Below are positions 12,964-58,066 of a stretch of 59,500 nucleotides of DNA, one piece after another. The stretch's first letter is position 1; every line of letters starts with the position of its first letter. A program made the translations under genes and the position numbers. The DNA lies in UHGV virus genome UHGV-0209830. One strand, written 5' to 3'. Below the pieces are notes generated by a model. The model was not told the DNA's origin. It saw only the letters and a program-made list of their open reading frames with translations, and made no database searches. Source of the stretch: a virus.

Positions 12964-12980
12964 AATTTTCTAACACAAAA
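12964..12980. promoter_or_regulatory. Operator-like motif copy (attttctaacacaaaat)
   Basis: Member of the dispersed TGTGTTAGAAAAT-like family, directly upstream of ORF at 12991. Confidence 0.45.
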
Positions 12981-12990
12981 TATTAGAGTT

Positions 12991-13383
12991 ATGGCGTATC
13001 GAATCTTTGTTTCGTATAAAAATGGCGCTAAGAGCCACTCTCTGAACACAACAAGTCGCTTTCTTGTTGAGGCGCAGTTGGCATCAATTCTTGCCGAAAG
13101 TGAGATACTCTCGCTCGCTGAACGGATCGTTATCCAGTTTTCTGGTAGAGATATACTCAATGTCCCCACCCTCACCCCGGCATCCGAAGTTATGGAATCA
13201 ATTAAATGGCCTGTATGCGGATGTCCTGCCAGGGTTGAAGAGCCGGTAACTGCAACGCTCTACATGCCGAAAGCTGTAAGAGATTGGCTTGCTATGGTTG
13301 GCAATGGGAAAGTCAGTGCTGGACTTCGCAAGTTAATTGAAATGGCAGATATTCCTGAGTTAAAAAATGCATGGCGACAATGA
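12991..13383 (+). CDS. Hypothetical protein (130 aa)
   Basis: ORF track; ATG start preceded by operator-like motif. Confidence 0.5.
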   Translation: MAYRIFVSYKNGAKSHSLNTTSRFLVEAQLASILAESEILSLAERIVIQFSGRDILNVPTLTPASEVMESIKWPVCGCPARVEEPVTATLYMPKAVRDWLAMVGNGKVSAGLRKLIEMADIPELKNAWRQ

Positions 13384-13399
13384 GTAAACAAGGGACAAA

Positions 13400-13858
13400 A
13401 TGAGTCACGTTAACCCCTCAAAAACACAATATCGCTTAATGCTGGCGATCGCGTCAGCTATACCAACCAGCCTGAATCCCCCGACAGGCTATCCCGCTGT
13501 TGTTGATGATTGTTTTCAGTATTACGGAGAAGACATCCTGAGCCAGTCAAAAGCGCTCAAGCAGTTATGTAAGGCAGGTATTCTTCACTGTATCGGAGAT
13601 CCGGACGATTTTGTTGTTATGCTGGCGGATCGTGACTCTTTTCTACTGTCCTGGAAAGCTGGTGCGCGCGAAGCACGTTTGGGGAATGGTATTGGTTACA
13701 TAGACTATAGCGATTGCCCGCTGGCATTTGCTGGTGGATATATGCATTGGCATGAGCGAAATAGGGGCCGTCAGCGTCAGTATCGTTTGAGTGACTTTAA
13801 CGTCTGTCACGGTTTCGAAGAAGCTGACAGCCAGGACATCTGGCTTCAGGAGCCTTGA
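13400..13858 (+). CDS. Hypothetical protein (152 aa)
   Basis: ORF track. Confidence 0.5.
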   Translation: MSHVNPSKTQYRLMLAIASAIPTSLNPPTGYPAVVDDCFQYYGEDILSQSKALKQLCKAGILHCIGDPDDFVVMLADRDSFLLSWKAGAREARLGNGIGYIDYSDCPLAFAGGYMHWHERNRGRQRQYRLSDFNVCHGFEEADSQDIWLQEP

Positions 13859-14154
13859 TCCCCCTTCCCTTCCCAAATCTCCCTGTTTTTTTGGTTATTC
13901 AGTGCGTTTCGTTGGTTGCATTCGTCGATCGTGCTGAATAACTGTTCAGCGTATGTCGGATACTTGTTTAACAGCACTGGCGTGTCTTCTGGCACTAAAC
14001 AAGGGGAGTAGTCAATCAGATTTGCCTGCGGCCTGCTGGTGGCTTCTACGGTAATTTTCACTGGCACGCTGGTTGATGGCTTTTGCCCGTTCCCGCTGCA
14101 TCCTGATAACGTCATCAGGCACACGTACATCGTTAATCCCAGCACGGCGTAACG
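13846..14154 (-). CDS. o-spanin (Rz1-like outer-membrane lipoprotein), overlapping the i-spanin gene
   Basis: Signal peptide with lipobox LSGC; starts inside and extends beyond the i-spanin ORF in another frame; track ORF 13846..14178 trimmed to internal Met. Confidence 0.6.
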   Translation of the reverse strand, partial: RYAVLGLTMYVCLMTLSGCSGNGQKPSTSVPVKITVEATSRPQANLIDYSPCLVPEDTPVLLNKYPTYAEQLFSTIDECNQRNALNNQKNREIWEGKGDQGS

Positions 14155-14470
14155 CATTTTCAAGACGAGTGATTTCATTCTGGCTTTCCTCCCGTTGTTT
14201 GATTAGGTTGGCATTCAGTTCTGCTGTTTTGCGTTGGTACTCCTTTTCCAGTGCTTTAATTCTTTCGTTTTCGGTCAGCATGGCTGAGCGAGCGTTCTCA
14301 CTTAACTGTAATGCTGTAGAAAGCGTGTTGTTCGTGCTTTCCAGTTGTGATTTTGAGTCTTCAAGCGATCGGACATACCTGATGTGTTCGATAACTGCCG
14401 TCGTTGTTCGGTAAATTCCAGAAATGGCTAAAAGAGCAATTACAATCAAAATTATCTTTTTCAAAACCAT
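14012..14470 (-). CDS. i-spanin (Rz-like)
   Basis: N-terminal TM helix, coiled-coil rich periplasmic part, overlapped by lipoprotein ORF. Confidence 0.65.
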   Translation of the reverse strand: MVLKKIILIVIALLAISGIYRTTTAVIEHIRYVRSLEDSKSQLESTNNTLSTALQLSENARSAMLTENERIKALEKEYQRKTAELNANLIKQREESQNEITRLENALRRAGINDVRVPDDVIRMQRERAKAINQRASENYRRSHQQAAGKSD

Positions 14471-14540
14471 CCTCTTCAGGTTTACTATTGGTGTTAAACA
14501 TGTACCAATTTACATCCTTTTGTGTTCCTAAGTGGTGTTG

Positions 14541-15344
14541 CTATTGTTCCTTTTTGGTGTTCTTTTGGAGCGCATCGATAACGCCTTGTGGCATGATTAA
14601 ACTGATTGCCGGACTCATTACTGCATCATCCAGTAGAGAACCAGTTAACGTGATGGCGACAGCGTTCTCTAAACCTTTGGTTGCCTGAGTGGTTGACGTT
14701 TTAATGCGACCTGTAAGGGCTACGACACTCTCACTTGCTGAGTTAATTTCGGAGAGTAAAACTTCGGCGGCTGTCACTGCTTCCCGTAGAGCATCAATTT
14801 CATCCTGAGTAATGACCGGAGCCTGAGCGCCCCCAGCACCACCCTGTCCACTATTGCTATCACCACCAGCACTTCCAGCAGCTTCTATTTTTGCGTTAAT
14901 GGCGTTCATGGCAGTTTTCAGAGCATCAAGTTTTAGCGCCGTCAATGCGTCCGTTAGAGATTGCGGAATGGAAACATTCCCCATCCCCTCAACAAGGGCG
15001 AAAGCAGGTATGGGGGCCAGCTCGTTACCTTTTACGTAGCATTCCCAGCCAATCTTCATCTGTAACAGCTCTGATGGCTTGGTGTATGGGGAAAGAGAAT
15101 CAGCCAGTAATGAAGACGCTTTGCTGGCCTCATTGAGCTGTTCAGAAAAGCCAAGCAATTGAGTAGTCCAGGCCGAAACAGAATCAGGATAGGTTTTATC
15201 GGCGTGAACTATTCCCTGTATGGCGCTGGCGAGTGATGAGGCTTTTACAGACGCTGCCCGGCTTATGGTTATAGATTCTGGTGTAGAGATACCGGCATCT
15301 GACAGAATTTTGAAGGCTTTAACTTCACCTATTGAATCAAGCAT
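14541..15344 (-). CDS. Hypothetical protein (about 267 aa)
   Basis: ORF track 14541..15443; likely start MLDSIGEV whose ATG overlaps the stop of the PAAR-like gene. Confidence 0.45.
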   Translation of the reverse strand: MLDSIGEVKAFKILSDAGISTPESITISRAASVKASSLASAIQGIVHADKTYPDSVSAWTTQLLGFSEQLNEASKASSLLADSLSPYTKPSELLQMKIGWECYVKGNELAPIPAFALVEGMGNVSIPQSLTDALTALKLDALKTAMNAINAKIEAAGSAGGDSNSGQGGAGGAQAPVITQDEIDALREAVTAAEVLLSEINSASESVVALTGRIKTSTTQATKGLENAVAITLTGSLLDDAVMSPAISLIMPQGVIDALQKNTKKEQ

Positions 15345-15628
15345 TATGCAACCTGAAAAATATCCTCGCCGTTGGCGATAACAGAACCACAAGAAAGCGG
15401 ATCGCCTACACAGACAACTCCCTTTCCACCTATCGAAAACCATACTCGCGTCGATACAGCTGCCCCTGGATGTGCACTGTTACCGTCAGTGTGACTGGGA
15501 AACATGGCACCATCTACAACAATTGGCTTACCGTTAACGGTGAACCAGGGAACAGTTTCAGCTACCAGTCGCGGCGGAAATCCTCCGTGACCAGAACAAA
15601 GGGTGTCGCTGGTGGCTATTGCGCTCAT
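15344..15628 (-). CDS. PAAR-like spike tip protein
   Basis: 94 aa with PAAR-type repeats (TVNGKPIVVDGA, CVGDPLSCGSVIANG). Confidence 0.55.
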   Translation of the reverse strand: MSAIATSDTLCSGHGGFPPRLVAETVPWFTVNGKPIVVDGAMFPSHTDGNSAHPGAAVSTRVWFSIGGKGVVCVGDPLSCGSVIANGEDIFQVA

Positions 15629-15699
15629 TCTTCACCTCCGGGTTATCCTCCTATTGTCATCACTTTGTTATTTCGTCATTCAAACTGAGAGTTAAATTT

Positions 15700-15800
15700 C
15701 GGAATATTTCTGTATTCTCACTTCATTCTCAAATAAATCTCACTGTCAGACCATAATTCATTGGGTGATTAAGGTATTCTCAAAATGAACTCAATAATCA
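15700..15800. repeat. parC-like centromere candidate: short attctca repeats upstream of parM
   Basis: attctca / atctcac copies at about 11-12 bp spacing directly upstream of parM. Confidence 0.35.
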
Positions 15801-15894
15801 CTCCTTTTTATCTCTTTTGGTGTGGATTTTTGGGTGCTTCTCTTTTAAAATTGCATTTTGGTTCTCAAATGTGTCTCAGAAGTGGAGCAAGAAG

Positions 15895-16851
15895 ATGCGC
15901 ATTTTTATCGATGATGGTTCAACCAATATCAAAATGCTGTGGGAGCACGACGGGGAAACTCGCACTCACATCAGCCCTAACAGCTTTAAGCGCGGATGGT
16001 CAGCAACATTTGGTGCTGGCAAGCCGTTTAACTATGTCATTGACGACGAAAAGTATTCGTATGATTTGATCTCGCCAGATGTTCTGCCGACGAATAACGT
16101 GGAATGGCAATACAGCCCGCTTAACGTCCTGGCTGTTCACCATGCCCTGCTGACAAGTGGCATTGAGCCGCAGGAAGTAGAAATTGTGGTCACGCTGCCT
16201 CTGGCGGAGTTTTACGACGACGACGCGCAATACAATCTCGATAACATCGAGCGCAAGAAAGCCAGTCTTATGCGCCCCGTCACGCTGAATAAAGGCAATG
16301 TGTTCACGATTAAGAAAGTTACGGTACGACCGGAGTCTATTCCGGCAGGAATTGGCCTGTGCGACAATCTGAACCCTGCCCATTCTGTTCTTATCGTCGA
16401 TTTGGGTGGAACTACCCTTGATGTTTCAATGGTCGCCGGGCAAATGACGGCAGTTTCCCGTGTTTTTGGCGATTCGAATCTTGGTGTATCACTGGTCACC
16501 AGGGAAGTAAGGCAAGCACTTGCAAGGGCCAATACCGAAACGTCAAATTACAATGTCGATCAGCTCATTATTAACCGCCACGATGAAGATTATCTGAACG
16601 ACAATATCAATGACCCATCAGCGATTGATGATGTGAAAAAGGCCATTGCCGCAAGCATTGACCGTTTGTGTACCCGCGTTCTTGATGTGATTGGCGACTT
16701 TAAAGGATATACGCATGTCATGGTGATCGGTGGTGGCGCACCGCTGGTGGCAGATGCAATTCGCGAGCAAGTTAATATTCGTGATGACCGTTTCTTCGTG
16801 GCGGATGACCCGCAACTTGCTCTTGTTCATGGCCTGAAAGCAATCGGTTAA
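15895..16851 (+). CDS. parM: ParM/StbA actin-like plasmid segregation ATPase
   Basis: Strong similarity to recalled R1 ParM (FIDDGSTNIK, HISPNSFK, ESIPAG, DLGGTTLD, GYTHVMVIGGGA); ATG at 15895 with RBS, track ORF over-extended upstream. Confidence 0.9.
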   Translation: MRIFIDDGSTNIKMLWEHDGETRTHISPNSFKRGWSATFGAGKPFNYVIDDEKYSYDLISPDVLPTNNVEWQYSPLNVLAVHHALLTSGIEPQEVEIVVTLPLAEFYDDDAQYNLDNIERKKASLMRPVTLNKGNVFTIKKVTVRPESIPAGIGLCDNLNPAHSVLIVDLGGTTLDVSMVAGQMTAVSRVFGDSNLGVSLVTREVRQALARANTETSNYNVDQLIINRHDEDYLNDNINDPSAIDDVKKAIAASIDRLCTRVLDVIGDFKGYTHVMVIGGGAPLVADAIREQVNIRDDRFFVADDPQLALVHGLKAIG

Positions 16852-16858
16852 CGAGGTA

Positions 16859-17203
16859 ATGTCCATGTCTCAGGAACGTAAGAAAGTGATGATTTATCTT
16901 CGCCCAGAGGCTTATGCCAATGAAAAGGCGGCGAGCGAGAAGATAAAAAAACATAGCGATATGGCAAGAACCGCATTGTTGGCAGGGCTTGCGCTGGGAG
17001 AAGTCGATAGCAGGCTTCCAGGATTACTGGCTTCCCTGCTGACCGAAGATAATAATCCGGAGCTGATCCGAAAAATGCTGGCATCCTTCCTGGAACTACC
17101 AGCTGCGGCTGAGGAGCGCCCTGCCTCCATTGAGCCAGCGAAGGAGCAAGTTGTTGCCAAAAGCGCGTCGGCGCGCAATCTGGCTGACTCTCTACCTGAT
17201 TGA
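16859..17203 (+). CDS. parR: ParR-like centromere-binding adaptor
   Basis: Small protein immediately after parM; RHH-like N-terminus; stop followed by terminator. Confidence 0.6.
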   Translation: MSMSQERKKVMIYLRPEAYANEKAASEKIKKHSDMARTALLAGLALGEVDSRLPGLLASLLTEDNNPELIRKMLASFLELPAAAEERPASIEPAKEQVVAKSASARNLADSLPD

Positions 17204-17221
17204 CAGAAGATGTGCTGGTTT

Positions 17222-17250
17222 AAGGCTGCAAATTGCAGCCTTTTTTATGC
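17222..17250 (+). terminator. Rho-independent terminator after parR
   Basis: ggctgcaaattgcagcc hairpin followed by tttttt. Confidence 0.7.
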
Positions 17251-17254
17251 CTTA

Positions 17255-17345
17255 ATGGTGCCTAATTGGTGTTAATCTGGCACCAGTTAGGTGCTGTTAT
17301 GGTGCAGTTTTGTATCTGGTTCCAATTTGGGGCTGATTTCGTGTT
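17255..17345. repeat. Centromere/operator-like repeat cluster upstream of parA (ggtgc, ggcacc, ggttccaatttgg, gtgttaaaca)
   Basis: Multiple short direct and inverted repeats between parR terminator and parA start. Confidence 0.4.
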
Positions 17346-17490
17346 AAACAGGATGCAATATAAGGTGTATTTGGTCTGATTGATGTTATACTTTGCCAAA
17401 CATTCATGACTCCATTATAGAGCCTGTCCCGCATCAAAAAGGCTCTTATCTGGAACCGTTTTGATACCAAAATCACACCGAGGAACGGAT

Positions 17491-20342: not shown

Positions 20343-20365
20343 TAGGTATTTCGCCACATAAAAAA

Positions 20366-22858: not shown

Positions 22859-22868
22859 TTCTCACCAT

Positions 22869-22904
22869 TTGTGTTAGAAAATACGCGTTAATTATCTAAC
22901 ACAA
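22869..22904. promoter_or_regulatory. Palindromic operator-like site (tgtgttagaaaat-N-attatctaacaca) upstream of rdgC operon
   Basis: Inverted pair of the dispersed motif. Confidence 0.5.
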
Positions 22905-22917
22905 ATGGGTGCATTTT

Positions 22918-28471: not shown

Positions 28472-28664
28472 AACAAAGCCTCTCAGTCATAACCTGGGGG
28501 AAACTGTATGCAGGGTGTGAAATGCGAGAAACAGACAGGCCACCAGTTCAGGGGGATGTGGTTCATAAATCCCCTCACTGGTGACAAGTGACTTTCATTA
28601 ATCTTTATGCGGGGGCCAGCTTCATTTGCTGGCATTAGATTAAAAATTAAACGGAGTGAATGAC

Positions 28665-29453: not shown

Positions 29454-29721
29454 TGTCCTTCCTCCACGGATGACGGATACAAAAAAAGGCCGCACATGGC
29501 GGCCTGCTTTGGCGTTATGACTCCCTACCGCGCTTCGGCTGAAAGTTAATCGTCAAAAGAACCTTCAACGGGAGCCGTTAGCGCGATGGATTATGTGCAG
29601 TTTGTGATTTCCAAAATAGTGTCAACCACTTTTGGTGGATTTTATTTTTTAACCGAAATTTGGCCTAAATCATGTTTATGTAGTTAATTGTTTTTATAAC
29701 ATAAAACTTCATTTTGTTTGC

Positions 29722-30345
29722 ATGAAGGATGGTGTAGTGAAGTTAAGGGCTTTAGGGGCCGCGCTCGCGGCTATGTTGGGATGCGTATCTGCTAATACTG
29801 CCAATGCAACTGCGTTACCTGCACAATTCAGGGCAGGGCAGCAGGTTATGAATAACGCTGGTGGAGATCATTCACAAGCGGCCATTATGGACTTTTGCAA
29901 GAGGGAGGGCATTCCATTACGGCCTGTTGGAACTCAGTTTATTGGTAAAACTGACTTTTGCGTTTTTGCATATACAGCATATCTGACGGACAAAGCTATA
30001 ACAAAAACAGGTTATTCAACCAAAGATACTCTTTCCAGATTAAGTCAGGGATGGCAGCAATTCGAAGTGTATCGCCAGCAAGGATTAGGTGAGTTATTGC
30101 AACCTCTTTTTATGCTTGCGTTGGTGCCAGAGGGGCAGCAATTTTTGGTTAAAAAGGGAATGCTTCGCCAAAGTGATATTGCCGGGTTCGATAGCATGAT
30201 GGCTTATGAGCGCAAACTAACCGAGCAGCGAAATAAAAAACCATCTGCTTCATGTGTGCAAAGTAAAACAGCAGAATACAGTGCAGTAGCCGGGCCTTTA
30301 GCCAAACAAATGGCAGAGCAATGGTGTAAAAAATACGGGCAATAA
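29722..30345 (+). CDS. Secreted/periplasmic hypothetical protein (207 aa)
   Basis: N-terminal signal peptide. Confidence 0.5.
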   Translation: MKDGVVKLRALGAALAAMLGCVSANTANATALPAQFRAGQQVMNNAGGDHSQAAIMDFCKREGIPLRPVGTQFIGKTDFCVFAYTAYLTDKAITKTGYSTKDTLSRLSQGWQQFEVYRQQGLGELLQPLFMLALVPEGQQFLVKKGMLRQSDIAGFDSMMAYERKLTEQRNKKPSASCVQSKTAEYSAVAGPLAKQMAEQWCKKYGQ

Positions 30346-30365
30346 GTTACGCAGCGGAGGCAGAA

Positions 30366-30758
30366 TTGAAAAGATTGGCTATTGCTTTACTGGCGTCTTT
30401 CCCTTTGATCGCGAGCGCCGGAAATTTACAAGTTAAGTGCGGTCGGTTTGATATAAAAATCTATCCAGATGCCATATTTCTGAATGGGAATAAGGTTGAT
30501 AACGCACACCGAAAAACTGAATCTGACGTAATGAGCTATGTGTTCCAGGAGTATGCGGAGATGGGGGGAACTTACACGCTGTACTCGCTGGATGTTCCTT
30601 CTCGCGGTGATATGACATTATCCCATCAATGGCAGAACGCCGATGGCGAAGCTCTGCGCGAGGTTAAAACAGAAAAATGTGGCACTTTCCATTCTTTTAA
30701 AGGGAAAGCGCCAAATGTTAAATCTGTGCTTGAAAAACAGCGCGCAGGTGAGCTTTAA
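30366..30758 (+). CDS. Secreted/periplasmic hypothetical protein (130 aa)
   Basis: Signal peptide MKRLAIALLASFPLIASA. Confidence 0.5.
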   Translation: MKRLAIALLASFPLIASAGNLQVKCGRFDIKIYPDAIFLNGNKVDNAHRKTESDVMSYVFQEYAEMGGTYTLYSLDVPSRGDMTLSHQWQNADGEALREVKTEKCGTFHSFKGKAPNVKSVLEKQRAGEL

Positions 30759-31145
30759 ACACCTTTAACCACGGAGATGCCGTTCCCTGCACGATAGCGG
30801 CGGGGAACGGAATTCTCCATCAGGTCACGAATTACTCCCGCCTCATGTAGTTCCACTGTTTCCCAGTATCTGTTTGTCACCAATTACGCCCCGTTCCGCC
30901 AGGGGAAGGTATGAACGAGCTTCTGCTTCGGTTGCAGCCATGACGCAGATATACAGGTGTTTTTGGCAGGAATAGAAACGCCAGATAAATTCAGAATGAG
31001 TTGGGGTGGGGATAGTAGCGATATTGGCAGCCTCCTTTGACTAAGTTAAGGAGCTACCGCGTGAGGTTCCAATTCCGGCACCCGTTTTTCTAAGGTGCCG
31101 TAGAAATATACCCCACGATAAGGCCAGGGCGCAAAAGTCAGTATT

Positions 31146-31313: not shown

Positions 31314-31644
31314 TTTGACACCCCCAGCGCGAGTAAAGAATGCAGATTATCGCGTGAGTGGCGGACAACGAGTGACGGGAAAAGACAGTAGCTGTTCATA
31401 GTGTAGTGACTCCTTGCTTTCGGAGCCGCCATCGACTGTTCCACGGTCTGGTGGCGGCGCAATAAAGGCTGGAACACCGTGAGTCAACGGGGGCTTTTCA
31501 GCCACCTATATTGCGCCGCCATAGGTATGGCGGCGGCAATAATACGAAAAACTATACAGTTTGTCTCAAAAAGTTGACCGGTGTGCCAATCGGTAGTGAA
31601 TGTACATCGGAGAAATTTATAATTCAACTTAAAATGTTAGAAAA

Positions 31645-32262
31645 CTAATTCATCAATTCAATCGCCATCTGATACAACGTCATTTCATCAGCATTGTGCC
31701 GCCTGAAATCTGCTTTACCGCCTATTTTTCCATCAGCATGAACAGGAACCAACCAGGGGTATTGCTCGCGGATCTCTGCTGGCGCTGCGTGTTGATGGTG
31801 CCATTTACACAAAGGGAGGACGTATTTATGCGCGTTCTCTGCTGTTCTTCCGAAGATGTGGTGCAGGGATACCACAGGGCTATGCTGTCCGTGCATATGG
31901 CAGGCAATGCAGGGGAGAGCACCGATGGCAGTTTGTATCCGGCGCTCATCTGCTGTGAGTGTTCTGCCTTTCAGGCCGCGTGACGCGCGAGTTTTTTTGA
32001 CAGGAGCAGAAGCGGCCTTCTCTTTTCTTCGCTGTTCATATTGCTTCGCTTTTTCAATTTTCTTTTGCCGATATTCAGGCGATGCGGCTTTTTCTCGCGC
32101 ACGCTGCTGCTGGCGTTGAGCTTGCTGAAGACGCTTTGCCCTTTGTTCCTCCCGCCATTTCGGATCAGCCAGTTTTTGCAGGGCTTTTTGTGTCTGTTTC
32201 TCCCAATAGCTTTGCTTCATAGAAATACCCGGTTTGTCTACATAGCCGCTATGGTTGATCAA
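31645..32262 (-). CDS. HNH-type endonuclease with KR/Q-rich N-terminus (Ref-like candidate)
   Basis: C-terminal CIACHMHG...HH...CKWHH zinc/HNH-like motifs; disordered basic N-terminus; operator-like palindrome at its start, as for P1 ref. Confidence 0.4.
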   Translation of the reverse strand: MINHSGYVDKPGISMKQSYWEKQTQKALQKLADPKWREEQRAKRLQQAQRQQQRAREKAASPEYRQKKIEKAKQYEQRRKEKAASAPVKKTRASRGLKGRTLTADERRIQTAIGALPCIACHMHGQHSPVVSLHHIFGRTAENAHKYVLPLCKWHHQHAAPAEIREQYPWLVPVHADGKIGGKADFRRHNADEMTLYQMAIELMN

Positions 32263-32264
32263 AC

Positions 32265-32298
32265 ATGTTAGAAAATCAAAATTGATTTTCTAACACAA
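32265..32298. promoter_or_regulatory. Near-perfect palindromic operator-like site (gttagaaaatcaa-N-ttgattttctaac) in divergent promoter region
   Basis: Best palindromic copy of the dispersed motif. Confidence 0.55.
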
Positions 32299-35976: not shown

Positions 35977-36010
35977 ACGTTAGAACGTTGATTTTAGTTT
36001 TCTAACATAC
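35977..36010. promoter_or_regulatory. Operator-like inverted pair upstream of ORF 36050
   Basis: gttagaacgttgattttagttttctaac. Confidence 0.45.
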
Positions 36011-41470: not shown

Positions 41471-41692
41471 ATGCAATCCATTAACTTCCGTACCGCGCGC
41501 GGCAACCTTTCTGAAGTGCTCAACAATGTTGAAGCCGGGGAAGAGGTTGAAATCACCCGCAGAGGCCGAGAGCCAGCAGTAATTGTCAGCAAGGCTACTT
41601 TTGAAGCCTACAAAAAAGCGGCGCTGGATGCTGAATTTGCATCCCTGTTTGACACCCTGGACTCCACCAACAAGGAACTGGTTAACCGATAA
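41471..41692 (+). CDS. phd: Phd antitoxin
   Basis: [49 protein letters not shown] matches recalled P1 Phd; track starts 2 codons upstream at GTG. Confidence 0.9.
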
Positions 41693-45002: not shown

Positions 45003-45019
45003 GATGTGTTAGAAATTTA
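45003..45019. promoter_or_regulatory. Operator-like motif copy (gatgtgttagaaattta)
   Basis: Dispersed motif family, upstream of ORF starting 44960. Confidence 0.4.
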
Positions 45020-45021
45020 AT

Positions 45022-46201: not shown

Positions 46202-46235
46202 CTAACTTTAAATAATGCCAATTATTTAAAGTTAT
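46202..46235. other. lox-like recombination site (13-bp inverted arms around 8-bp spacer)
   Basis: ctaactttaaata-atgccaat-tatttaaagttat; arms share TAACTT and TA with recalled loxP arm ATAACTTCGTATA; about 170 bp upstream of cre. Confidence 0.65.
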
Positions 46236-46415
46236 AAAATGCCGATTTTTTTGTAATCCATCATAGATTGATGATGGACAGTAACACGTTGCCTTCATGG
46301 TCTTTAATTTGCGAAGTGTGGTTTCAACGGTTGGTTTTCTAACGTTGATGACAAAAAAATCATAGTCCGATCCTTTACTCGCTCTGTTATTCGACATAAA
46401 TTTGTCATAGTAATT

Positions 46416-46432
46416 TTATGTTAGAAAACTAA
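46416..46432. promoter_or_regulatory. Operator-like motif copy upstream of ORF 46444
   Basis: ttatgttagaaaactaa. Confidence 0.4.
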
Positions 46433-46443
46433 ATCGCGTAGGA

Positions 46444-47484
46444 ATGATGAGTATGAAGTCGATCGAGAAAGAGTACAAACGGTTCCTGCAAACCGCAGAA
46501 CGGTGGAAAGAGCTGGTGGTCGCAAACTCTGTTTTCCATGATACCAGTTATGCTGGTGAGGAATTCCGCCATGTTGCATTAACGCATGACCAAAACATAT
46601 TAGAAGAAGCTGAAAAATGTCTTGCTGAATGGAAAGCCTTCGTTGACATGTGCCGCGATGCCGACGGCAAAGCGTCGAACATTGTTGAGTCCGTATATTC
46701 TCCGATCCCATTCATCATTGAGGACACCAATCAAAGCACGCATGTCGTTGTGCAAAGCGCTACAACAACACGTGCATTTACACGTGAACAATTGCTAAAA
46801 AAATACGACAAAATCATAAAGAAAAGCCTGAAAAATAGGGTTTTTTCTCAAATCGTAGGTGCTCTTGAAGAAGAACAGCGCTTCTTTGAAGCTGAGCCTG
46901 AAGGCGAGATCTACCGGGCGCGTAAAGAGGCATATACAGATGTTGTGCTGACAACAAACATCGAAGGCAGTAATGCCCTTTCTCGCTTTAGAGTTGGCGC
47001 ACATGGCGCATTGGTTTTCGCAAGACTACCGAAGACAACGATCCCCGTTGTCAATAATGTTGGTGAACGCCGGAGCATTACAATTTATTCTGGCGTCGAA
47101 TCGGTACCTTGCAGCCTTCTCGGCGATTTTAACTTATATCGTGTTCGTGACCTGGAAAAACACCAGCCAAGCTACGTTGCGAAGTCGTATATCTTAAGGA
47201 ACATCGATATTCGCAATGAAAGCCTTAAGCAGAAATCCGCTAAGATGCTGGAGGATGCCGATCCGGCTATTCGCCATATCATTGAGCGTAAGATACGCAC
47301 ATCACGTGAAGCAATGGCAAGGCTGGATAAAATGGATCTGGAATTGTTAGACGTAATGATGGCCTCTGGAGACGACCTGACCGGCATTAAACTGAATGAA
47401 GCTCGTAAAAAATACGGCAAAGCAATCGAAGAACGTTACGGATACACATTCCCCCAAACGCAGTACGCCGCGAAGCTCTGGTAA
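46444..47484 (+). CDS. Hypothetical protein (346 aa); candidate C1-type repressor by position only
   Basis: Between lox/cre and pacB, convergent with pacB, operator-like motif upstream; no sequence-level confirmation. Confidence 0.3.
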   Translation: MMSMKSIEKEYKRFLQTAERWKELVVANSVFHDTSYAGEEFRHVALTHDQNILEEAEKCLAEWKAFVDMCRDADGKASNIVESVYSPIPFIIEDTNQSTHVVVQSATTTRAFTREQLLKKYDKIIKKSLKNRVFSQIVGALEEEQRFFEAEPEGEIYRARKEAYTDVVLTTNIEGSNALSRFRVGAHGALVFARLPKTTIPVVNNVGERRSITIYSGVESVPCSLLGDFNLYRVRDLEKHQPSYVAKSYILRNIDIRNESLKQKSAKMLEDADPAIRHIIERKIRTSREAMARLDKMDLELLDVMMASGDDLTGIKLNEARKKYGKAIEERYGYTFPQTQYAAKLW

Positions 47485-50848: not shown

Positions 50849-50882
50849 TTGTATTAGAAAATTAATACTAAATATCTAACGC
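50849..50882. promoter_or_regulatory. Operator-like inverted pair upstream of Lpa-like gene
   Basis: ttgtattagaaaattaatactaaatatctaacgc. Confidence 0.45.
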
Positions 50883-51274
50883 TACCAGCGAGACAAACGA
50901 ACAACATGTTTCACTTTTGCGATCCACTTTCCGCGACAACTATTGATTACGGCCTGTGCCAGCTTCAAATTGGCTTCAAAATCAGCCTTACTACCATCTG
51001 ACTCCACCAGCATTCCGCCATCTATTTCTGGTAAACATAGATAATCCTGCTCAACCTGCAGCGGCATTGATGGCTCTCTGAATGGCGTTACTTGCTCTGC
51101 TTTCCAGCGAAAGCTAACCCTCATCCCCCTGGTGGTCATTACCAGATAGCCTGTTATAGTGCTTTTATGGCCCACATCAGTACGCGTGGCATTGCATGAC
51201 ACGATCTTACAGTTAGCGATAGACCACTCCATATTGGTGGCCTGTTGAGTGCTTAATTTGGTAGTCCCGTACAT
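50882..51274 (-). CDS. Hypothetical protein (130 aa)
   Basis: ORF track. Confidence 0.45.
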   Translation of the reverse strand: MYGTTKLSTQQATNMEWSIANCKIVSCNATRTDVGHKSTITGYLVMTTRGMRVSFRWKAEQVTPFREPSMPLQVEQDYLCLPEIDGGMLVESDGSKADFEANLKLAQAVINSCRGKWIAKVKHVVRLSRW

Positions 51275-52302: not shown

Positions 52303-52378
52303 TGGTGGCCCCTACCGGACTTGAACCGGTGACCGTGCGATTATGAGTCGCCAGCTCTAACCACTGAGCTAAAGGGCC
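52303..52378 (-). tRNA. tRNA with CAT anticodon, tRNA-Ile2 (lysidine) type
   Basis: 76 nt cloverleaf with encoded CCA; anticodon loop CTCATAA; near-identical to recalled E. coli ileX; Met not excluded. Confidence 0.8.
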
Positions 52379-53633: not shown

Positions 53634-53841
53634 TGACGTTAACCAGTTAACAATTAACGCCGGGATGTTTGATTTAACCACTAATAAGGATTGTTTTAAC
53701 TGTTCCGCGTGCGCTTAGCCGCATTCACCGCAATGGTAAGAGCACTTGGCTGGCTGGGCGGCGATGACGCCTGTACGCATTTGGTGATCCGGTTCTGCTT
53801 CCGGCATTCGCTTAATTAGCCAAATACTCTTAACGTTGCGC

Positions 53842-53928
53842 TGGCGGAGAGTAATGGAATCGAACCATCATCGCTTGCGCAATGGGACGGTTTTCAAGAC
53901 CGCTTGAGCACCATGCTCCCTACTCTCC
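53842..53928 (-). tRNA. Atypical type-II tRNA-like gene with TGA anticodon (tRNA-Ser(UGA)-like)
   Basis: 87 nt; acceptor GGAGAGT/ACTCTCC, G discriminator, CCA, T-loop TTCGATT, anticodon loop CTTGAAA; D-arm shortened and variable arm irregular. Confidence 0.45.
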
Positions 53929-54393
53929 GGCCGTTGTGGTGGCCGGTACTGAATCTCCGGCATACGGTGCAGCCAATTAGGACTACGGACGATCACCGCT
54001 CGCGAAAGGGAAGATTTGCGGCCGCATTTCCCTAACATCCAAGAAAGCTATCGCATCAGTCTGCGAATCCACCACAACGTTGAGAACACTGGTTGTCACG
54101 CTGCCTCGCGACCTTTATTCATAGATTGGGATATGACCCCGTTACGCCAATGTTCTCAACGTTGTAGTGCCGGTTACGGTTCCGGCCAGGCTTCTTCCTC
54201 AACGGGGTGTTCTCCATACGGACTACCGTTTATTGGTCGTTCCTGCGGTTTATGTTGTGAAGCCAGATGCTTATCTTCTGGTTGCTTCAAAGAGCTGCAC
54301 TTCATCACAACGGTAAGGGTACTTCGTAGGGATTCGAACCCTCTGCCAAGCTCGGCGATCTCCGACGTCGCAAAATACCCTTACCTGTTGTGT

Positions 54394-54469
54394 TGGTGCC
54401 GGTTAACGGACTCGAACCGCTGACATCCTGCTTACAAGGCAGGCGCTCTACCAACTGAGCTAAACCGGC
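54394..54469 (-). tRNA. tRNA-Thr (TGT anticodon)
   Basis: 76 nt cloverleaf, anticodon loop CTTGTAA, T-loop TTCGAGT, encoded CCA. Confidence 0.8.
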
Positions 54470-54471
54470 AT

Positions 54472-54547
54472 TGGCGATGGTGGATGGATTTGAACCATCG
54501 ACCCGTTGATTAACAGTCAACCGCTCTAACCGCTGAGCTACACCATC
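54472..54547 (-). tRNA. tRNA-Asn (GTT anticodon)
   Basis: 76 nt cloverleaf, anticodon loop CTGTTAA, T-loop TTCAAAT, encoded CCA. Confidence 0.8.
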
Positions 54548-55257
54548 ACTTGCCGGGTACGTCTCCGGCGAGGGCTTCCACCTCCGTATGCTTTTCGGCG
54601 CACCGCGCCCTGGCTGCAATTCGGTAACAGGGGATGCATAACCCTGGCTTCCAGCGTGATTAGCGCCTTCAGCATGACGGGATATACCCGTTGCAAGACA
54701 TTATCCCAGAAAGCCATTAACCAATGGCTGTTACGCGGGAGGGACGTAACAGGTAAGGGCGCTGACCAGAAAGACCTGACCCTTCTCATTCATCTGGTTA
54801 ATCACACCAGCGCCCTTGCCTGTTATGCCTCCCCGTTCCCTAATACACAGACGGGGACACTCTGCGGTCGATTTTTTGACGGGGGACGACTCATACCCCG
54901 TGGCGTCAGGCTTCTTAGGCCGCTACCATCATCAGATCATCGTTTGCATTTACTTTAATGGTCGGTTTCTAAACCGCCGCAAAGTCGCTAACCATGACGA
55001 AAACCCTAAAAAAGCCCACCCGAAGATGGGCAAATACGCTACGTATCACACAAGAAAGAAGCCGACTGCCTGAACTGGATTCACTTTCAAATGCCCGCTG
55101 AAAGGGATCACAAGTCGGCTTCTTTCTTGATGCGGCACTCTCTCCGCCCGTCACCGCTCTGTCTCGGTTGTCGCGTTTGCCACGCCAGCCATAACGAGGT
55201 TTAAAGTCTTTGCACGTTCCCATCACTCGACTGCCGTCTGAGGCTGTTCGTTGCAGC

Positions 55258-55272
55258 GGGGGTGCCTCCCCC
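55258..55272. other. Conserved-loop hairpin, copy C (ggggg-tgcct-ccccc)
   Basis: Same loop, third stem variant. Confidence 0.5.
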
Positions 55273-55755
55273 TGGGGATATCCCCGGCCTTACCCCATTC
55301 TTTCAAGACACAATGCAAGGCCACATCCGCATAGGTGCATTACCGCAACATTAAGGAGGCATAGGGCGGTTACCTTTTGCCCTGAGTCTCCTTAATGTTG
55401 AAGATGTGCATTGATGATTAGATGCAGCATGTACCGTTACTCTCTGCCGGACCATCATCAATGAACACCTTAAAAAGACCTTCCGTGGCTCAACATGGAC
55501 TGTCGTTTACTCCGCAAAGTGCTCTCTCTGAAACCACTTTCCGCACTAAACCTGCTGAACTTTGGCCTGCACGGTGCCAAAGCGTGCTCTTGCATTGCTA
55601 TACTTTTCTAACGCTTTAATTTGTTAAATGCTGGTGGGCGAACAATAACCAATAAGTGACTATCAAGCCCAGCAAGCGAAACGTGGGTGCCGCCCACCAG
55701 CAAGGAAAATTCTATGTTAAGTTACCTTCACAATCAATACGTTCGAATCGTAATT

Positions 55756-55774
55756 TTAGATTTCTAACACATTA
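55756..55774. promoter_or_regulatory. Operator-like motif copy at upstream edge of the RNA island
   Basis: ttagatttctaacacatta. Confidence 0.4.
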
Positions 55775-56995
55775 TTTCCCGTAAAGATCTTCTACACCCC
55801 CATTCTTCTTATCCCATTCGTTCGCCCATACCCGGCAAGCGTCAATGATTTCCTGACGACGATCTCCTTGCATGAACGGAATGCTTTCATGGAAACAGCT
55901 TGGAATGCAGGCCACACTGAATACAGTATCAAACTCCGTCTGCTTGATTGCCTCCAGCGTCTCCGGACGCATTTTTAATTCATCGATTGGCGCATCCTTA
56001 GAGTCCATAATCCGGCGATATAAGCGCGGAAAATCCGTCTCCAGGTACGCCATAATTTTATCTGCGAGACATTCGTCTATGTCGGTATTCCAGTCCTTTT
56101 CGAAGCCCGGCAGGCGATAGTAAAGCGGCGTTCCCCATACCGATGGGATCACATCCATCGTTAACAGGCGATTGGTTCTGATTTGTTGATGGTAATTAGC
56201 CGTCAGCAGTGCTTCGCCACGCTGCCCAGTTTCCGCAACCAGGCCGTGCGGATACTCATGGATGTAGGCAATGGCATCCCGCCCATCATACATAAGTGGA
56301 AATGTCTCTGGTCTTTGTCCCATGCCACAAGCACGGTTCAGATCGTGACCAAGCTGTGAGCACTCTCGCTTTAATGTTTCGATAATGCTCTGTGCTGTAG
56401 CCAACTTTTTACGCAGTGTGACGCCTTCGCCTTGATAATCAATGCATTGCTGATTGAGCTTGGTTAAACGCTCTTTTAGTTCCCGGCGCTCTCTTTTCAG
56501 CGTGCGGTTATCCTTCTCCGCAACATCCAGCCGCTTTGTCAGGCTGGGCGGATAGTCTTTTTTGTAACGGTTCAAATCGGCTTCGGCAGATTTACGCAGT
56601 GTATTTGCCTGTTCAAGACGCGCTTCCAGATTGCCGATCTCATTACGCATATTCACGGCAAATTGATTAACTGCATCACCCAGGCTTTCAACTGTCGCTG
56701 ATACGCCTGTGACTTGTGAAAAACGGATCAAGCCATCATTAACGGCTTGTTGGTATTCCTCAAACTGATCCACCAGCTTATTGTAATCAACTGCCCCATC
56801 ATCAAGCAGCTTGTTGATTTCCGCCACCAGGTTATCTGTAGTGGCAATGACACTCTCGTGCAGTCGCTTTGACAGGTCATCACCCGGATTCCGTTTCTGT
56901 ATAAGAGCGATTTGTGTGCGCAGCGTTTCAATTGCTGTCGAGATAATTTCCAGATTAGAAGTATCAGTGTGTTGACTCATTGCTGTTCCCGTCAC
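55772..56995 (-). CDS. Hypothetical protein with coiled coil (407 aa)
   Basis: ORF track; operator-like motif just upstream. Confidence 0.55.
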   Translation of the reverse strand: MTGTAMSQHTDTSNLEIISTAIETLRTQIALIQKRNPGDDLSKRLHESVIATTDNLVAEINKLLDDGAVDYNKLVDQFEEYQQAVNDGLIRFSQVTGVSATVESLGDAVNQFAVNMRNEIGNLEARLEQANTLRKSAEADLNRYKKDYPPSLTKRLDVAEKDNRTLKRERRELKERLTKLNQQCIDYQGEGVTLRKKLATAQSIIETLKRECSQLGHDLNRACGMGQRPETFPLMYDGRDAIAYIHEYPHGLVAETGQRGEALLTANYHQQIRTNRLLTMDVIPSVWGTPLYYRLPGFEKDWNTDIDECLADKIMAYLETDFPRLYRRIMDSKDAPIDELKMRPETLEAIKQTEFDTVFSVACIPSCFHESIPFMQGDRRQEIIDACRVWANEWDKKNGGVEDLYGK

Positions 56996-57005
56996 CTTGT
57001 TAAAT

Positions 57006-57022
57006 TAGTTTTCTAACATATT
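57006..57022. promoter_or_regulatory. Operator-like motif copy upstream of ORF 56995
   Basis: agttttctaacatattt. Confidence 0.4.
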
Positions 57023-57060
57023 TTATTAGTTTGATGACGGTATCGGAAGATGCAATAAAC

Positions 57061-57088
57061 AAAAAACCCGCTAATTGGCGGGTTTTTA
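57061..57088. terminator. Rho-independent terminator (bidirectional-type)
   Basis: aaaaaacccgc-taattg-gcgggttttt. Confidence 0.7.
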
Positions 57089-57093
57089 TGCAA

Positions 57094-57408
57094 TTACTGT
57101 GTTGCAGCCTCATAAATAAGATACGCGATAAATACAGGTACGATGGCCCATTGCAGCAATGAAAGTAGCCTCATTACTGTTATTGGGGTAACTCCATCCA
57201 CGTATTGTTTCTCTGACATTTTCCCTAACCAACTAACCGACAACAGTGCCGAGTTTTCACCCAATTCCAGCTCTCTGAGAGCTTCACGGATTAACGGCGC
57301 TGTCACAGCCTTAACCGGTGTGCTCAACGTGATACTCCGCGTCCTCCCCGCATCGTCAGCGAACGCCAGACTCACATAATATTTTTTGCTCAATGTACAA
57401 ACTCCCAA
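57094..57408 (-). CDS. Hypothetical protein with C-terminal TM helix (start uncertain)
   Basis: ORF track; possible shorter start at MSEKQY; followed by terminator. Confidence 0.35.
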   Translation of the reverse strand: MGVCTLSKKYYVSLAFADDAGRTRSITLSTPVKAVTAPLIREALRELELGENSALLSVSWLGKMSEKQYVDGVTPITVMRLLSLLQWAIVPVFIAYLIYEAATQ

Positions 57409-57590
57409 TCATCAGCGCTTGCACTTTCCGGGGTTATGTGAACCTTATCGCCAGTAACAATATTGCGAGCTTCAAAACTTCCATTGATACGTTTCGAGAT
57501 CTCAATACATAGAGCCTGTTGCCATGAGCGACGCCGAGCGATAGCATTAGTTCCTGCAGGGATAAGTTCAGCCACGTTAAGTAAACGCAA
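57390..57590 (-). CDS. Hypothetical small protein (66 aa)
   Basis: ORF track. Confidence 0.3.
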   Translation of the reverse strand: MRLLNVAELIPAGTNAIARRRSWQQALCIEISKRINGSFEARNIVTGDKVHITPESASADDWEFVH

Positions 57591-57604
57591 AACGATTTCT
57601 CCGT

Positions 57605-58048
57605 TTAATCAAGATTTACATATTCCGTGATAGCTTTTATGGCTTCATCGGCACTGCGCGCCTCAAAGCAGTAATAGCCTGCTTCCGTGAGGCGAGTCAT
57701 CCAGACGAGCTGTTCGGGAGTCAGACGGTTTCTCCCGTGCTTCATCTCAATGCGCATTCCGTGATACCCACCACGAGCAAGGTCAATAGAAAGGTCCGGA
57801 TAGCCCTTCTTCTGACCTTCTGCCACCATCTTAATGGCTGTCCTTTTGCCTCTCAGGCCGCCGTTCGGTGTTGAGTGTGTGTGCTCATACACGTATCGCA
57901 TGTTGCGATACAGCCAATCCAGAACGCGAACCTGTTCGTAATGTTCGTAATTCCGTTTTAATAAGTCAGGATTTCTTTCTAACTCTCTCAGTGCAGCAGC
58001 GTGCGGGGATATTTCAGAATACGCACTATGATGCCTGCGTCTTCGCAT
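57605..58048 (-). CDS. VRR-NUC domain nuclease
   Basis: GYPDLSIDL...GYHGMRIEMKHG...LTPEQLVWM pattern. Confidence 0.6.
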   Translation of the reverse strand: MRRRRHHSAYSEISPHAAALRELERNPDLLKRNYEHYEQVRVLDWLYRNMRYVYEHTHSTPNGGLRGKRTAIKMVAEGQKKGYPDLSIDLARGGYHGMRIEMKHGRNRLTPEQLVWMTRLTEAGYYCFEARSADEAIKAITEYVNLD

Positions 58049-58066
58049 CAGTTTTCTAACACAAAG
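58049..58066. promoter_or_regulatory. Operator-like motif copy abutting VRR-NUC start
   Basis: cagttttctaacacaaag. Confidence 0.4.

Follow-up and report, generated by a model that had tools for sequence, protein, structure and literature searches.

A dispersed operator-like motif in a phage D6-like plasmid prophage probably forms the operator set of its C1 repressor

The 59,500-nucleotide virus genome UHGV-0209830 (the window, meaning the whole stretch analysed) carries copies of a short motif ahead of genes scattered along its length, and the question is what this motif does and which protein recognizes it. Judged from its sequence, the window is a phage D6-like, P1-related plasmid prophage. 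The D6 genome was reportedly described by Gilcrease and Casjens in 2018. The window was 93–98% identical to D6 (MF356679, AY753669) and collinear with it, from 41.6 kb through the record end to 12.8 kb, and was without the second icd/ant module of D6 (D6 72.3–75.4 kb). A D6 counterpart was present for every window site; no operators are annotated in these two D6 GenBank records.

With up to two mismatches, TGTGTTAGAAAAT was found 13 times in the window, compared to 2.06 matches expected and a shuffle maximum of 6. A weight matrix built from the motif matches, used with a site threshold of at least 12 bits and with dinucleotide shuffles as the control, gave 15 sites in the window (0.8 in the shuffles) and gained two weaker ones, at 29687–703 and 46330–46. 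The conserved core is asymmetric, about 16–17 bp wide, and reads TRTGTTAGAAAAYTAAA. All 11 loci at which the initial annotation had placed the motif exist (S1, S2, S4 to S7, S8b and S9 to S12 below), with coordinates accurate to a few bases, while a match of 8.7 bits at 13356–68, within orf52, appears fortuitous. Motif sites were much rarer in coding than in intergenic DNA: of the 20 in the annotated D6 genome, 18 are intergenic, and intergenic DNA makes up 10.2% of the sequence (P = 2e-16). That the copies arose by chance in AT-rich spacers, or are functionless remnants of a dispersed repeat, was considered since intergenic DNA is somewhat AT-richer (GC 0.436 versus 0.47 for the genome), but a shuffle restricted to intergenic DNA gave 0.36 sites against 17 observed, the core is kept while the flanks diverge, and homologous positions hold across lineages. 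The enrichment, the intergenic placement, the intergenic-only shuffle and the conservation upstream of c1 effectively refute this reading, which is vanishingly improbable.

The C1 immC master repressor network of P1 and P7, with its dispersed monovalent and bivalent operators, was reportedly described by Eliason and Sternberg in 1987. In P1, 22 asymmetric operators of 17 bp are scattered over the genome (PMC8546580), and C1 control of P1 ref, dmt, ssb, kilA and ban is experimental (PMC4713147). When P1 operator positions were taken from the annotated record AF234172 (Lobocka et al. 2004), window sites matched the positions of Oref, Omat, Odmt, Olpa, Oc1, OpmgR, O26 and Oban, and beyond the window D6 sites also matched OrepL and Orlf/Oc4. 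The layout is, as first proposed, that of P1, where C1 operators are numerous and scattered, and the P1 record, which lists both Oref and Olpa, bears out the remark that the ref and lpa sites fit genes that are C1-controlled in P1. The D6-type and P1 plasmid prophages, each of about 90 kb, encode homologous repressors and carry about 20 asymmetric sites that are about 17 bp long, some of them paired into palindromes, and they share operons and site positions at both ends of ref and at hrdC-dmt, lpa, c1, pmgR/S, pmgL/M, tRNA-tci and repL. With the TCTAA cores aligned, the orientation to the target gene agrees with that in P1 at most of the informative positions (lpa, ref 3′ end, isaA operon, pmgM and repL).

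The counterpart of P1 Odmt, which is upstream of uhr-hrdC-dmt, is the bivalent S2a/S2b (22870–22903; 18.0 and 23.7 bits), located 11 bp upstream of hrdC, encoding an RdgC-family protein, in the hrdC-dcm-dmt operon. S4, AATGTTAGAAAACTAAT (31633–31649, plus strand), overlaps the ref stop codon and scored 21.1 bits at the first scan, with the matrix as it stood before S4 joined it; its position and relative orientation are identical to those of P1 Omat, which overlaps the P1 ref 3′ end. The 34-bp bivalent S5a/S5b (32264–32297; 21.9 and 26.1 bits) lies in the divergent ref/orf88-ppp intergenic region and is the counterpart of Oref and, for the ppp operon, of Oppp. S7 (45005–45021, plus; 25.8 bits), 44 bp upstream of orf117 in the orf117-orf116-dut-orf114-isaA operon, resembles Ossb at the head of ssb-isaA. 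S8b, TATGTTAGAAAACTAAA (46417–46433, plus; 26.6 bits), is the positional counterpart of Oc1, and S9a/S9b (50850–50883; a strong site of 24.7 bits and a degenerate one of 8.6 bits), 76–93 bp upstream of lpa in the lpa-pacA-pacB operon, that of Olpa. S10 (55755–55771, minus; 25.4 bits) heads the minus-strand tRNA-Asn/tRNA-Thr/tRNA-Ser/tciAB/tRNA(CAT) operon and corresponds to Obanab, which heads tRNA-tci-ban in P1; downstream of S10 there is an uncertain extra site of 6.7 bits (55599–55615, minus), whose homologous D6 position, 8912–28, scores 14.2 bits. S11 (57004–57020, minus; 26.6 bits), 8 bp ahead of where pmgS starts, corresponds to OpmgRa/b, controlling pmgR-pmgS, and S12 (58047–58063, minus; 24.7 bits), overlapping the pmgM start codon, to O26 upstream of pmgL-pmgM.

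Three sites are without a P1 counterpart. S1 (12961–12977, minus; D6 54203–19) is a perfect consensus match of 28.0 bits in the spacer that separates capsid gene 23 from orf52, 13 bp ahead of the latter. S3 (29687–29703, minus), 18 bp upstream of a simB-like gene, is a weak and uncertain candidate of 14.5 bits (16.6 bits in D6, at 72197–213). S6 (35993–36009, minus; 26.6 bits) is 40 bp upstream of a pdcB-like DUF968 gene in an operon with pmgU as its last gene; the site is a pair in D6 (80707/80724).

In sequence, the sites are unlike the P1 consensus, as had been noted at the outset. The operator of the D6 type is TRTGTTAGAAAAYTAAA and that of P1 is ATTGCTCTAATAAATTT, and in a cross-scan each motif type was essentially limited to its own genome: D6-type sites numbered 20 in D6 with 1 marginal match in P1, and P1-type sites numbered 22 in P1 with 2–4 marginal matches in D6 and the window. 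A shared CTAA/TTAG core is visible, as the initial annotation had pointed out, but the likeness of the TTAGA cores was not significant against permuted matrices. The pairs are also arranged differently, being 34 bp long with outward-facing cores 21 bp apart here, and 28 bp long with inward-facing cores 13 bp apart in P1. The palindrome reported at 32265–98 is real, with two perfect 14-nt arms and a 2-nt gap, and 22865–22908 is an inverted pair whose 18-nt arms are 94% complementary. Two other claimed inverted pairs stood only in part, because the second half is degenerate in the window at 50849–82 (8.6 bits) and at 35977–36010 (below 6 bits).

Could the motif instead be a promoter element, either a host −10/−35-like box or a box for a phage activator or sigma factor such as those of Lpa-dependent late promoters? 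The 3′ part of several copies is the −10-like TAAAAT, and copies lie 8–97 bp ahead of start codons; over all sites the distance to the next start codon is −2 to 97 bp, except at 31633–49 (319 bp) and at 55755–71, where the first tRNA is about 1.2 kb away. However, about half of the copies face each way relative to the downstream gene, two loci are near-perfect palindromes, and one copy overlaps the ref 3′ end. The mixed orientation and the palindromic copies show that the motif is not a directional promoter element. In addition, P1-type late-promoter boxes, AAGTGACT-N4-6-TAnnnT, occur apart from the motif, at 12926–44, ahead of capsid gene 23, and at 28586–604; the separate retention of this P1 box indicates that Lpa specificity is unchanged while the motif has changed. 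The genes served are early-type, structural-gene operons are without the motif except for one copy between the divergent gene 23 and orf52, and the D6 annotation contains no sigma-factor gene. A promoter element is therefore most improbable. Predicted sigma-70 promoters adjoining the sites are weak and without clear overlap with them. One, TTGATT-17-TAGAAT, is just downstream of S10, and another, TTGATA-16-TGnTATTAT, is at 58114–58087, 25–50 bp upstream of the pmgM start and S12. At lpa and the tRNA operon, in contrast to P1, the site precedes the predicted −35. These promoter findings count against a C1 operator set.

The repressor had been called unidentified, which was incorrect, as the plus-strand gene at 46444–47484 (345 aa plus stop) encodes a C1-family protein. 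It carries Pfam PF27008 (Phage_P7_repressor_C1) and shares 99% identity with C1 as annotated in D6; with P1 C1 it is collinear, at 21% identity (hhalign probability 99.9%, E 2.3e-32). The D6-type protein is about 60 residues longer than P1 C1 and ends in a long helical C-terminal extension. S8b, 10 bp ahead of the c1 ATG, ranks among the strongest sites and is the proposed autoregulatory operator, which would be a further feature shared with P1. In a five-way alignment of c1-upstream regions (mean identity 58%), TGTTAGAAAA, within S8b, was the sole long invariant block. A weaker second site upstream of c1, S8a, AACGTTAGAAAACCAAC (46330–46346, minus), scores 12.5 bits, and 14.8 bits at D6 111–127; GGTTTTCTAA is common to the window, D6 and pK91. 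Upstream of lpa, the TTAG and TCTAA half-site cores were invariant in a four-way alignment, and in both alignments the cores were conserved and the flanks diverged.

Across relatives the site sequence tracks the C1 lineage. The motif is retained where C1 is 99%, 68%, 47% or 43% identical to that of the window. S6 has a perfect copy at the equivalent place in L012 (C1 43% identical), S7 is kept in pK91 and L012, and the Citrobacter plasmid has a lineage-specific motif at the S7 position. In Citrobacter and Leclercia phage-plasmids, whose C1 proteins are about 29–30% identical to that of the window and 49% identical to each other, scans found neither the D6 nor the P1 motif, and CCTTAGAAT occupies homologous positions; P1 (C1 21% identical) has ATTGCTCTAAT instead. 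This co-variation is not exclusive to C1 because the distant relatives have diverged genome-wide, so other regulators co-vary as well, and C1 is proposed as the binder from sequence. The sites might then be operators of another DNA-binding protein, a phage regulator or a host factor. Against this, they match positions bound by C1 in P1, a strong site precedes c1 itself, and the pK91 remnant, consisting of hot-to-dre and c1 only, keeps the motif before c1 and orf117. Occurrence of all three lineages in Enterobacteriaceae hosts argues against a host factor, and P1 and the window have the Lpa box in common while the motif is not shared. Another binder is thus unlikely.

Unexpectedly, the predicted structure of C1 (AF2 model, pLDDT 94.6) resembles the bacterial replication-terminator protein Tus, the reference being the E. 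coli replication fork trap (PDB 1ECR, 4XR0). Tus was the sole match in the PDB structure comparison, with TM-scores of only 0.39–0.46. Sequence similarity between C1 and Tus was not significant (hhalign about 5%), and Pfam Ter gave one match among 37 C1 family members, below cut-off (E 0.015). The operator, with its own centre shortened by 2 bp, resembles TerB (p about 0.02 versus composition-matched shuffles). These likenesses would suit C1-bound sites that block replication forks or helicases in a polar, Tus/Ter-like manner, besides or instead of repression. However, the equivalent of the Ter lock base G.C(6) is not conserved (A4/G1/T7), and Tus residues 96–146 are without a counterpart in the C1 model; this segment presumably carries the lock-pocket residues F140 and H144. 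Site orientations show no polarity switch along the D6 genome, and the known function of C1, by experiment in P1, is transcriptional repression, whereas Tus/Ter is a fork trap. A polar barrier is very unlikely. C1 may still read its asymmetric site via a Tus-like fold with long interdomain beta-strands.

The motif is therefore best explained, with a probability of roughly 80%, as the operator set of the D6-type C1 encoded at 46444–47484, which would hold early genes off; the earlier reading as an operator network stands, with the repressor now assigned to a gene in the window. That C1 is the binder and that binding means repression are what we infer. While the phage persists as a plasmid prophage, C1 would occupy about 12 loci of the window, and about 20 sites across D6 as a whole; every site is an asymmetric 16–17-bp TRTGTTAGAAAAYTAAA, and some are arranged as 34-bp head-to-head pairs. 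By binding beside early sigma-70 promoters, or a short way downstream of them, C1 would keep the ref, orf88-ppp, hrdC-dmt, dut-isaA, DUF968-pmgU, pmgM/pmgR/pmgS, tRNA-tci and lpa operons off. Lpa would in turn gate the late genes, and C1 would limit its own synthesis via the site 10 bp upstream of c1. No homologue of Coi or Lxc was detectable, and the P1 regulatory circuit is therefore not fully reproduced.

The C repressors of P2, P2 Hy dis and WPhi are related proteins whose operators have diverged, giving new immunity specificities, and Cluster A mycobacteriophages have many asymmetric ‘stoperator’ sites dispersed genome-wide, as here. P2-type and Cluster A repressors are helix-turn-helix proteins with folds unrelated to C1, and their site architecture and gene sets differ. 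The kind of system in the D6 lineage appears to be an expected one, and the site sequence that its C1 would recognize a new one.

By megablast, the window is a plasmid prophage similar to phage D6, a P1 relative. Local BLAST showed that D6 (MF356679) from position 41,579 to its end, followed by 1-12,795, is collinear with the window at 93-98% identity, and the gene names used for the window were transferred from the D6 annotation. A segment at window 29779-31070 has been replaced and stands in the place of D6 72288-75415. The second immI-like module of D6 (simB, orf80, pmgF, antirepressor and icd) is missing from the window; the replacement carries a 207-aa simB-like ORF and a 130-aa ORF whose N-terminus resembles a signal peptide. 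No c4 RNA was found in the whole window, in which the Rfam matches were tRNAs only. The Chi sequence (GCTGGTGG) is present in 43 copies on both strands of the 59.5 kb (for example at 13730, 14035, 55630 and 55694), compared to approximately 1.8 expected, and it also tops the over-represented 9-mer families in the related Citrobacter (L010) and Leclercia (L011) phage-plasmids.

The motif TGTGTTAGAAAAT, with at most 2 mismatches allowed, occurred 13 times in the window versus 2.06 times expected, and the largest count in the shuffles was 6. When the copies are aligned one way, they share 16-17 conserved positions (TRTGTTAGAAAAYTAAA) and internal symmetry is absent. A weight matrix identified 15 window sites at 12 bits or more, compared to 0.8 in dinucleotide shuffles. 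These include a strong independent site at 31633-49, which lay outside the set used for the first matrix, and the matrix also picks two weaker sites at 29687-703 and 46330-46. In the annotated D6 genome, 18 of the 20 sites that reached 12 bits are located within the intergenic 10.2% of the DNA (P = 2e-16), and the equal frequency inside coding regions that the initial annotation had named as counter-evidence was not observed. Because shuffling of the D6 intergenic DNA alone gave 0.36 sites versus the 17 observed, AT-rich spacers are an insufficient explanation of the motif. There are, then, at least 10 dispersed, asymmetric sites of approximately 17 bp, nearly all of them intergenic.

All 11 loci at which the initial annotation had placed this operator-like motif were recovered in the window, and the palindrome it described at 32265-98 is real, consisting of two perfect 14-nt arms with 2 nt between them. 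An 18-nt inverted pair with 94% complementarity was found at 22865-908. Of the further pairs proposed at 50850 and 35993, the sites themselves held up and the second halves proved degenerate in the window. The paired sites of the D6 type span 34 bp, with cores that are 21 bp apart and face outward, whereas those of P1 span 28 bp, with cores that are 13 bp apart and face inward.

Judged from the sequence comparisons, the motif probably marks the operators to which the D6-type C1 repressor binds, a reading to which we would give a probability of about 80%. P1 C1 binds to 22 dispersed, asymmetric 17-bp operators (PMC8546580), and the genes under its control in P1 include ref, dmt, ssb, kilA and ban (PMC4713147). 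For the comparison, 20 monovalent sites were extracted from the P1 record AF234172, which annotates the experimentally derived C1 operators as protein_bind features. The window and D6 sites head the same early operons as those of P1 (ref, the mat position, dmt, lpa, c1 and pmgR/S), and the correspondence also covers pmgL/M, ban/tRNA, repL and c4. The pair at 32264-97, in the divergent spacer between ref and orf88, is the counterpart of P1 Oref (and of Oppp for the ppp operon), while the site at 31633-49 overlaps the ref stop codon and corresponds to Omat, which is placed likewise in P1. The pair upstream of hrdC-dmt (22870-903) matches Odmt, the one upstream of lpa (50850-83) matches Olpa, and the two sites upstream of c1 (46330-46 and 46417-33) match the Oc1 cluster. 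Further counterparts are found upstream of pmgS (57004-20; OpmgRa/b) and at pmgM (58047-63; O26), and the site at the head of the operon ending in isaA (45005-21) resembles Ossb. Beyond the window, D6 carries a site upstream of repL (22465; OrepL) and another downstream of repL and upstream of icd-ant (21262; Orlf/Oc4). Three window sites, at gene 23/orf52, simB and a DUF968 gene, have no P1 counterpart. The agreement with the P1 operator positions, together with the enrichment of the motif, lends support to the operator network that had been proposed for this DNA. When the TTAGA cores are aligned, the orientation of the operator relative to the target gene appears to agree between the two phages at repL, pmgM, lpa, the isaA operon and the 3′ end of ref, and it appears to be opposite at the site downstream of repL.

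The site at 55755-71 lies at the head of the minus-strand tRNA-Asn/Thr/Ser-tciAB-tRNA(CAT) operon and is the counterpart of P1 Obanab; the order Asn, Thr, tciAB, tRNA(CAT) in D6 and the window parallels the P1 ban operon. An inverted pair of Chi sequences (55694/55630) is located just downstream of this site. ARAGORN and Rfam assigned every tRNA gene to the minus strand, both in the window (52303-52378, 53842-53928, 54394-54469 and 54472-54547) and in D6 (6084-6159, 7145-7231, 7697-7772 and 7775-7850), whereas the D6 record as displayed has three tRNAs on the plus strand. The fourth D6 gene, tRNA(CAT) at 6084-6159, is unannotated in that record.

The description of the repressor as unidentified in the initial annotation is not supported, as a C1-family protein is encoded by the ORF at 46444-47484. 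This protein is 99% identical to D6 C1, and its BLASTP match to P1 C1 (21% identity, E 3e-8) begins at residue 8 in each protein and is collinear from there. The domain PF27008 (Phage_P7_repressor_C1) is carried by all relatives of the window C1, an assignment that is a precomputed annotation of close relatives rather than a scan of the window protein. A profile of the 37-member family matched P1 C1 by hhalign with 99.9% probability (E 2.3e-32) over approximately 250 residues, and the D6-type C1 differs from P1 C1 in an additional helical C-terminal extension of approximately 95 residues. The family is small; a set of 1.8 billion proteins contained 58 of its clusters when grouped at 50% identity. 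The gene order is pacB-c1-rox-dre, so that a C1-family gene lies between pacB and the cre/dre-lox/rox genes. A near-consensus sigma-70 promoter directed toward dre (TTGGCA-16-TATAAT, 11 of 12 matches) is present at window 46221-46194 on the minus strand and overlaps the rox recombination site (46203-46234). The site at 46417-33, which is of the strongest class, is located 10 bp before the c1 ATG with a plausible promoter (TTTACT-17-TAAATT) just upstream, an arrangement that fits negative autoregulation. The accessory proteins of the P1 system, the antirepressor Coi and the corepressor Lxc/Bof, were not found; tblastn of the window and D6 for homologues of P1 Coi and Lxc gave only matches with E of 0.4 or higher, and such small, fast-evolving proteins could escape detection. 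In P1, lxc lies directly downstream of ulx (P1 9750-9998), and the corresponding position in D6 is occupied by the 86-aa orf13, which has no annotated function (window 58501-58935 and downstream). The best tblastn match of this position to Lxc had an E of 0.4 and was on the wrong strand, and no similarity was seen.

The sites do not fit the P1/P7 operator consensus ATTGCTCTAATAAATTT. The P1 weight matrix identified 22 sites in P1 and only marginal matches of 12-12.7 bits in the window (2) and in D6 (4). Since none of these matches falls at a locus of the D6-type motif, the D6 sites form a specificity class distinct from P1/P7 immC, and each of the two motifs is essentially restricted to its own genome. 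A gradient of C1 variants carried by plasmids was detected by tblastn. Where C1 is 68% (plasmid pK91), 47% or 43% identical, sites of the GTTAGAAAA type are kept at homologous positions. When these diverged spacers are aligned, the only long block that stays invariant upstream of c1 is the motif core, and upstream of lpa both half-site cores are invariant. Plasmid pK91 (NZ_CP029871, Salmonella Typhi) is a conjugative IncFIB multidrug-resistance plasmid that also carries a BREX system. Its D6-like phage remnant (L009 13977-20979) contains hot, humD, phd/doc, isaA, dut, dre and c1, with the C1 protein intact and two motif copies preserved.

In the syntenic Citrobacter and Leclercia phage-plasmids, C1 is only 29-30% identical to the window C1 (49% mutually), and scans of both for the D6 and P1 motifs found neither. 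A third dispersed motif, A..CCTTAGAAT, is instead present at the same positions as the D6 sites: on both sides of ref and upstream of rdgC/hrdC, c1 and the orf117-like operon. The sequence TTAGA is common to all three operator classes, and the best alignment of the D6 and P1 matrices superimposes it. However, similarity among the three matrices did not rise above column-permuted nulls, so the shared TTAGA is a lead only and homology is not demonstrated. The three C1 lineages, with operator positions kept and operator sequence changed, offer a tidy system for studying the evolution of immunity specificity. The Citrobacter and Leclercia plasmids also have clusters of GATC repeats (AGTGATCAC / TGATCA) near pacA and upstream of c1 (L010 16803-17081 and 9221-9412; L011 23835-23882 and 19806-19827), which bring to mind the pac site of P1, whose regulation involves Dam.

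Plausible sigma-70 promoters adjoin the sites at 46417-33, 55755-71 and 58047-63 in weak consensus scans, and a stricter promoter scan found none at 45005-21 or at the sites before c1. The site precedes the predicted -35 both at lpa and at the tRNA operon, and the promoter-operator geometry given by the consensus scans is weak and inconsistent overall, which counts as a weakness of the C1-operator reading. The initial annotation had raised the alternative that the copies are promoter elements of a phage sigma factor. A directional promoter element is disfavored, as the copies point either way relative to the genes downstream and some of them form palindromes; the same two features led to the rejection of an RNA-level element. 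The Lpa-dependent late promoters of P1 share AAGTGACTT-N4-TAnnAT, and P1-type boxes (AAGTGACT-N4-6-TAnnnT) occur in the window at 12926-12944 (-) and 28586-28604 (+). The former, upstream of capsid gene 23, corresponds to P1 LP23, and a third pattern match at 4723-4742 is inside an ORF. Because the window has its late-promoter boxes at places other than the motif, Lpa specificity appears to be conserved while the motif is not, and a late-promoter or sigma-factor element was rejected given this separate box and the mixed orientation. With only two convincing P1-consensus boxes in 59.5 kb, the late promoters of D6 may for the most part be unlike those of P1. A CRP-like TGTGA/TCACA site was rejected for its wrong spacing, and a pac-type GATC cluster was rejected because the window has none, with no more than 2 GATC per any 200 bp. 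With the operators of a D6-type C1 as the preferred reading, the D6 sites are a new specificity class in a well-known kind of system, one possibly noted already in the D6 genome paper (Gilcrease & Casjens 2018); full-text searches of other literature, made with the motif sequence and with D6 operators as the subject, returned nothing relevant.

A search of the PDB found no sequence relatives of C1. The C1 protein was modeled with AlphaFold2 from the 37-sequence family alignment, with no templates, and the resulting model has very high confidence (pLDDT 94.6, pTM 0.82). Foldseek returned four significant matches to this model, and all of them were Tus, the E. coli replication-terminator protein (E 5e-8 to 1.3e-6, probability 1.00, TM 0.39-0.46); the next match had an E of 0.17, and a fold search of BFVD gave no matches. 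Like Tus, the predicted C1 has two alpha/beta domains, which are connected through long interdomain beta-strands. The models suggest, tentatively and at somewhat less than even odds, that the C1 proteins of P1/D6-like phage-plasmids have the Tus fold, share ancestry with Tus and bind DNA in a Tus-like mode. At the sequence level, the window C1 had no match to PF05472 (Ter), and one of the 37 family members reached E 0.015, which is below the cut-off. The hhalign probability between C1 and Tus was approximately 5%, with a Tus profile that is shallow because the Tus homologues found are all at least 81% identical. The weak alignments share one register (Tus approximately 120-250 versus C1 approximately 55-180), and this register agrees with the order of secondary structures in the two models, namely helix, hairpin, helix, long strand, two helices, long strand and four short strands, with Tus residues 96-146 as an insertion that is absent from C1. 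Invariant residues R42, A106, R158 and R160 of C1 are located in strands 40-47, 100-113 and 156-172, while invariant P87 and P89 are just ahead of the short strand 90-93 and G188 is just ahead of strand 189-192.

The Ter sites bound by Tus are asymmetric, and through one of them, TerB, Tus represses the gene that encodes it (PMC8707476). In MG1655, TerB (TATGTT-GT-AACTAAA) is separated from the tus ATG by 11 bp, and the c1 site (TATGTT-AGAA-AACTAAA), oriented likewise, is separated from the c1 ATG by 10 bp. The operator matrix scored TerB at -3.2 bits ungapped and at 14.1 bits only with 2 columns removed; the latter score had p = 0.023 versus shuffled TerB and 0.0002 versus random window 23-mers. 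In the Ter core GTTGTAAC, the G.C(6) lock base is conserved. Because the equivalent operator base is unconserved, there is no sign of fork-trap function, and a Ter-like fork barrier was rejected as the role of the motif. If C1 does have the Tus fold, a single C1 protein would lay its long interdomain beta-strands in the major groove of the asymmetric operator, as Tus does on Ter. Among the papers covered by the literature search, none was found that connects Tus with C1.

The D6-group phage-plasmids are common in E. coli and Salmonella, with approximately 150 PLSDB plasmids carrying a C1 of the window type, and the operator set would define both their immunity specificity and their candidate early regulon. 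The operator finding alone is of modest interest, and the larger potential value lies in the predicted relationship between C1 and Tus. For P1 C1, a classic repressor of asymmetric sites, we know of neither a structure nor a mechanism of DNA binding, and to our knowledge the evolutionary source of Tus-Ter is open, the literature mentioning an unexplained "domestication". If the relationship is true, both the mechanism of C1 and the origin of Tus-Ter become directly testable. The enterobacterial Tus-Ter fork trap would then be related, through domestication, to the immunity repressor of a phage-plasmid and the operator of that repressor, and TerB, the site of Tus autorepression, would have remained as a relic of autoregulation by the repressor.
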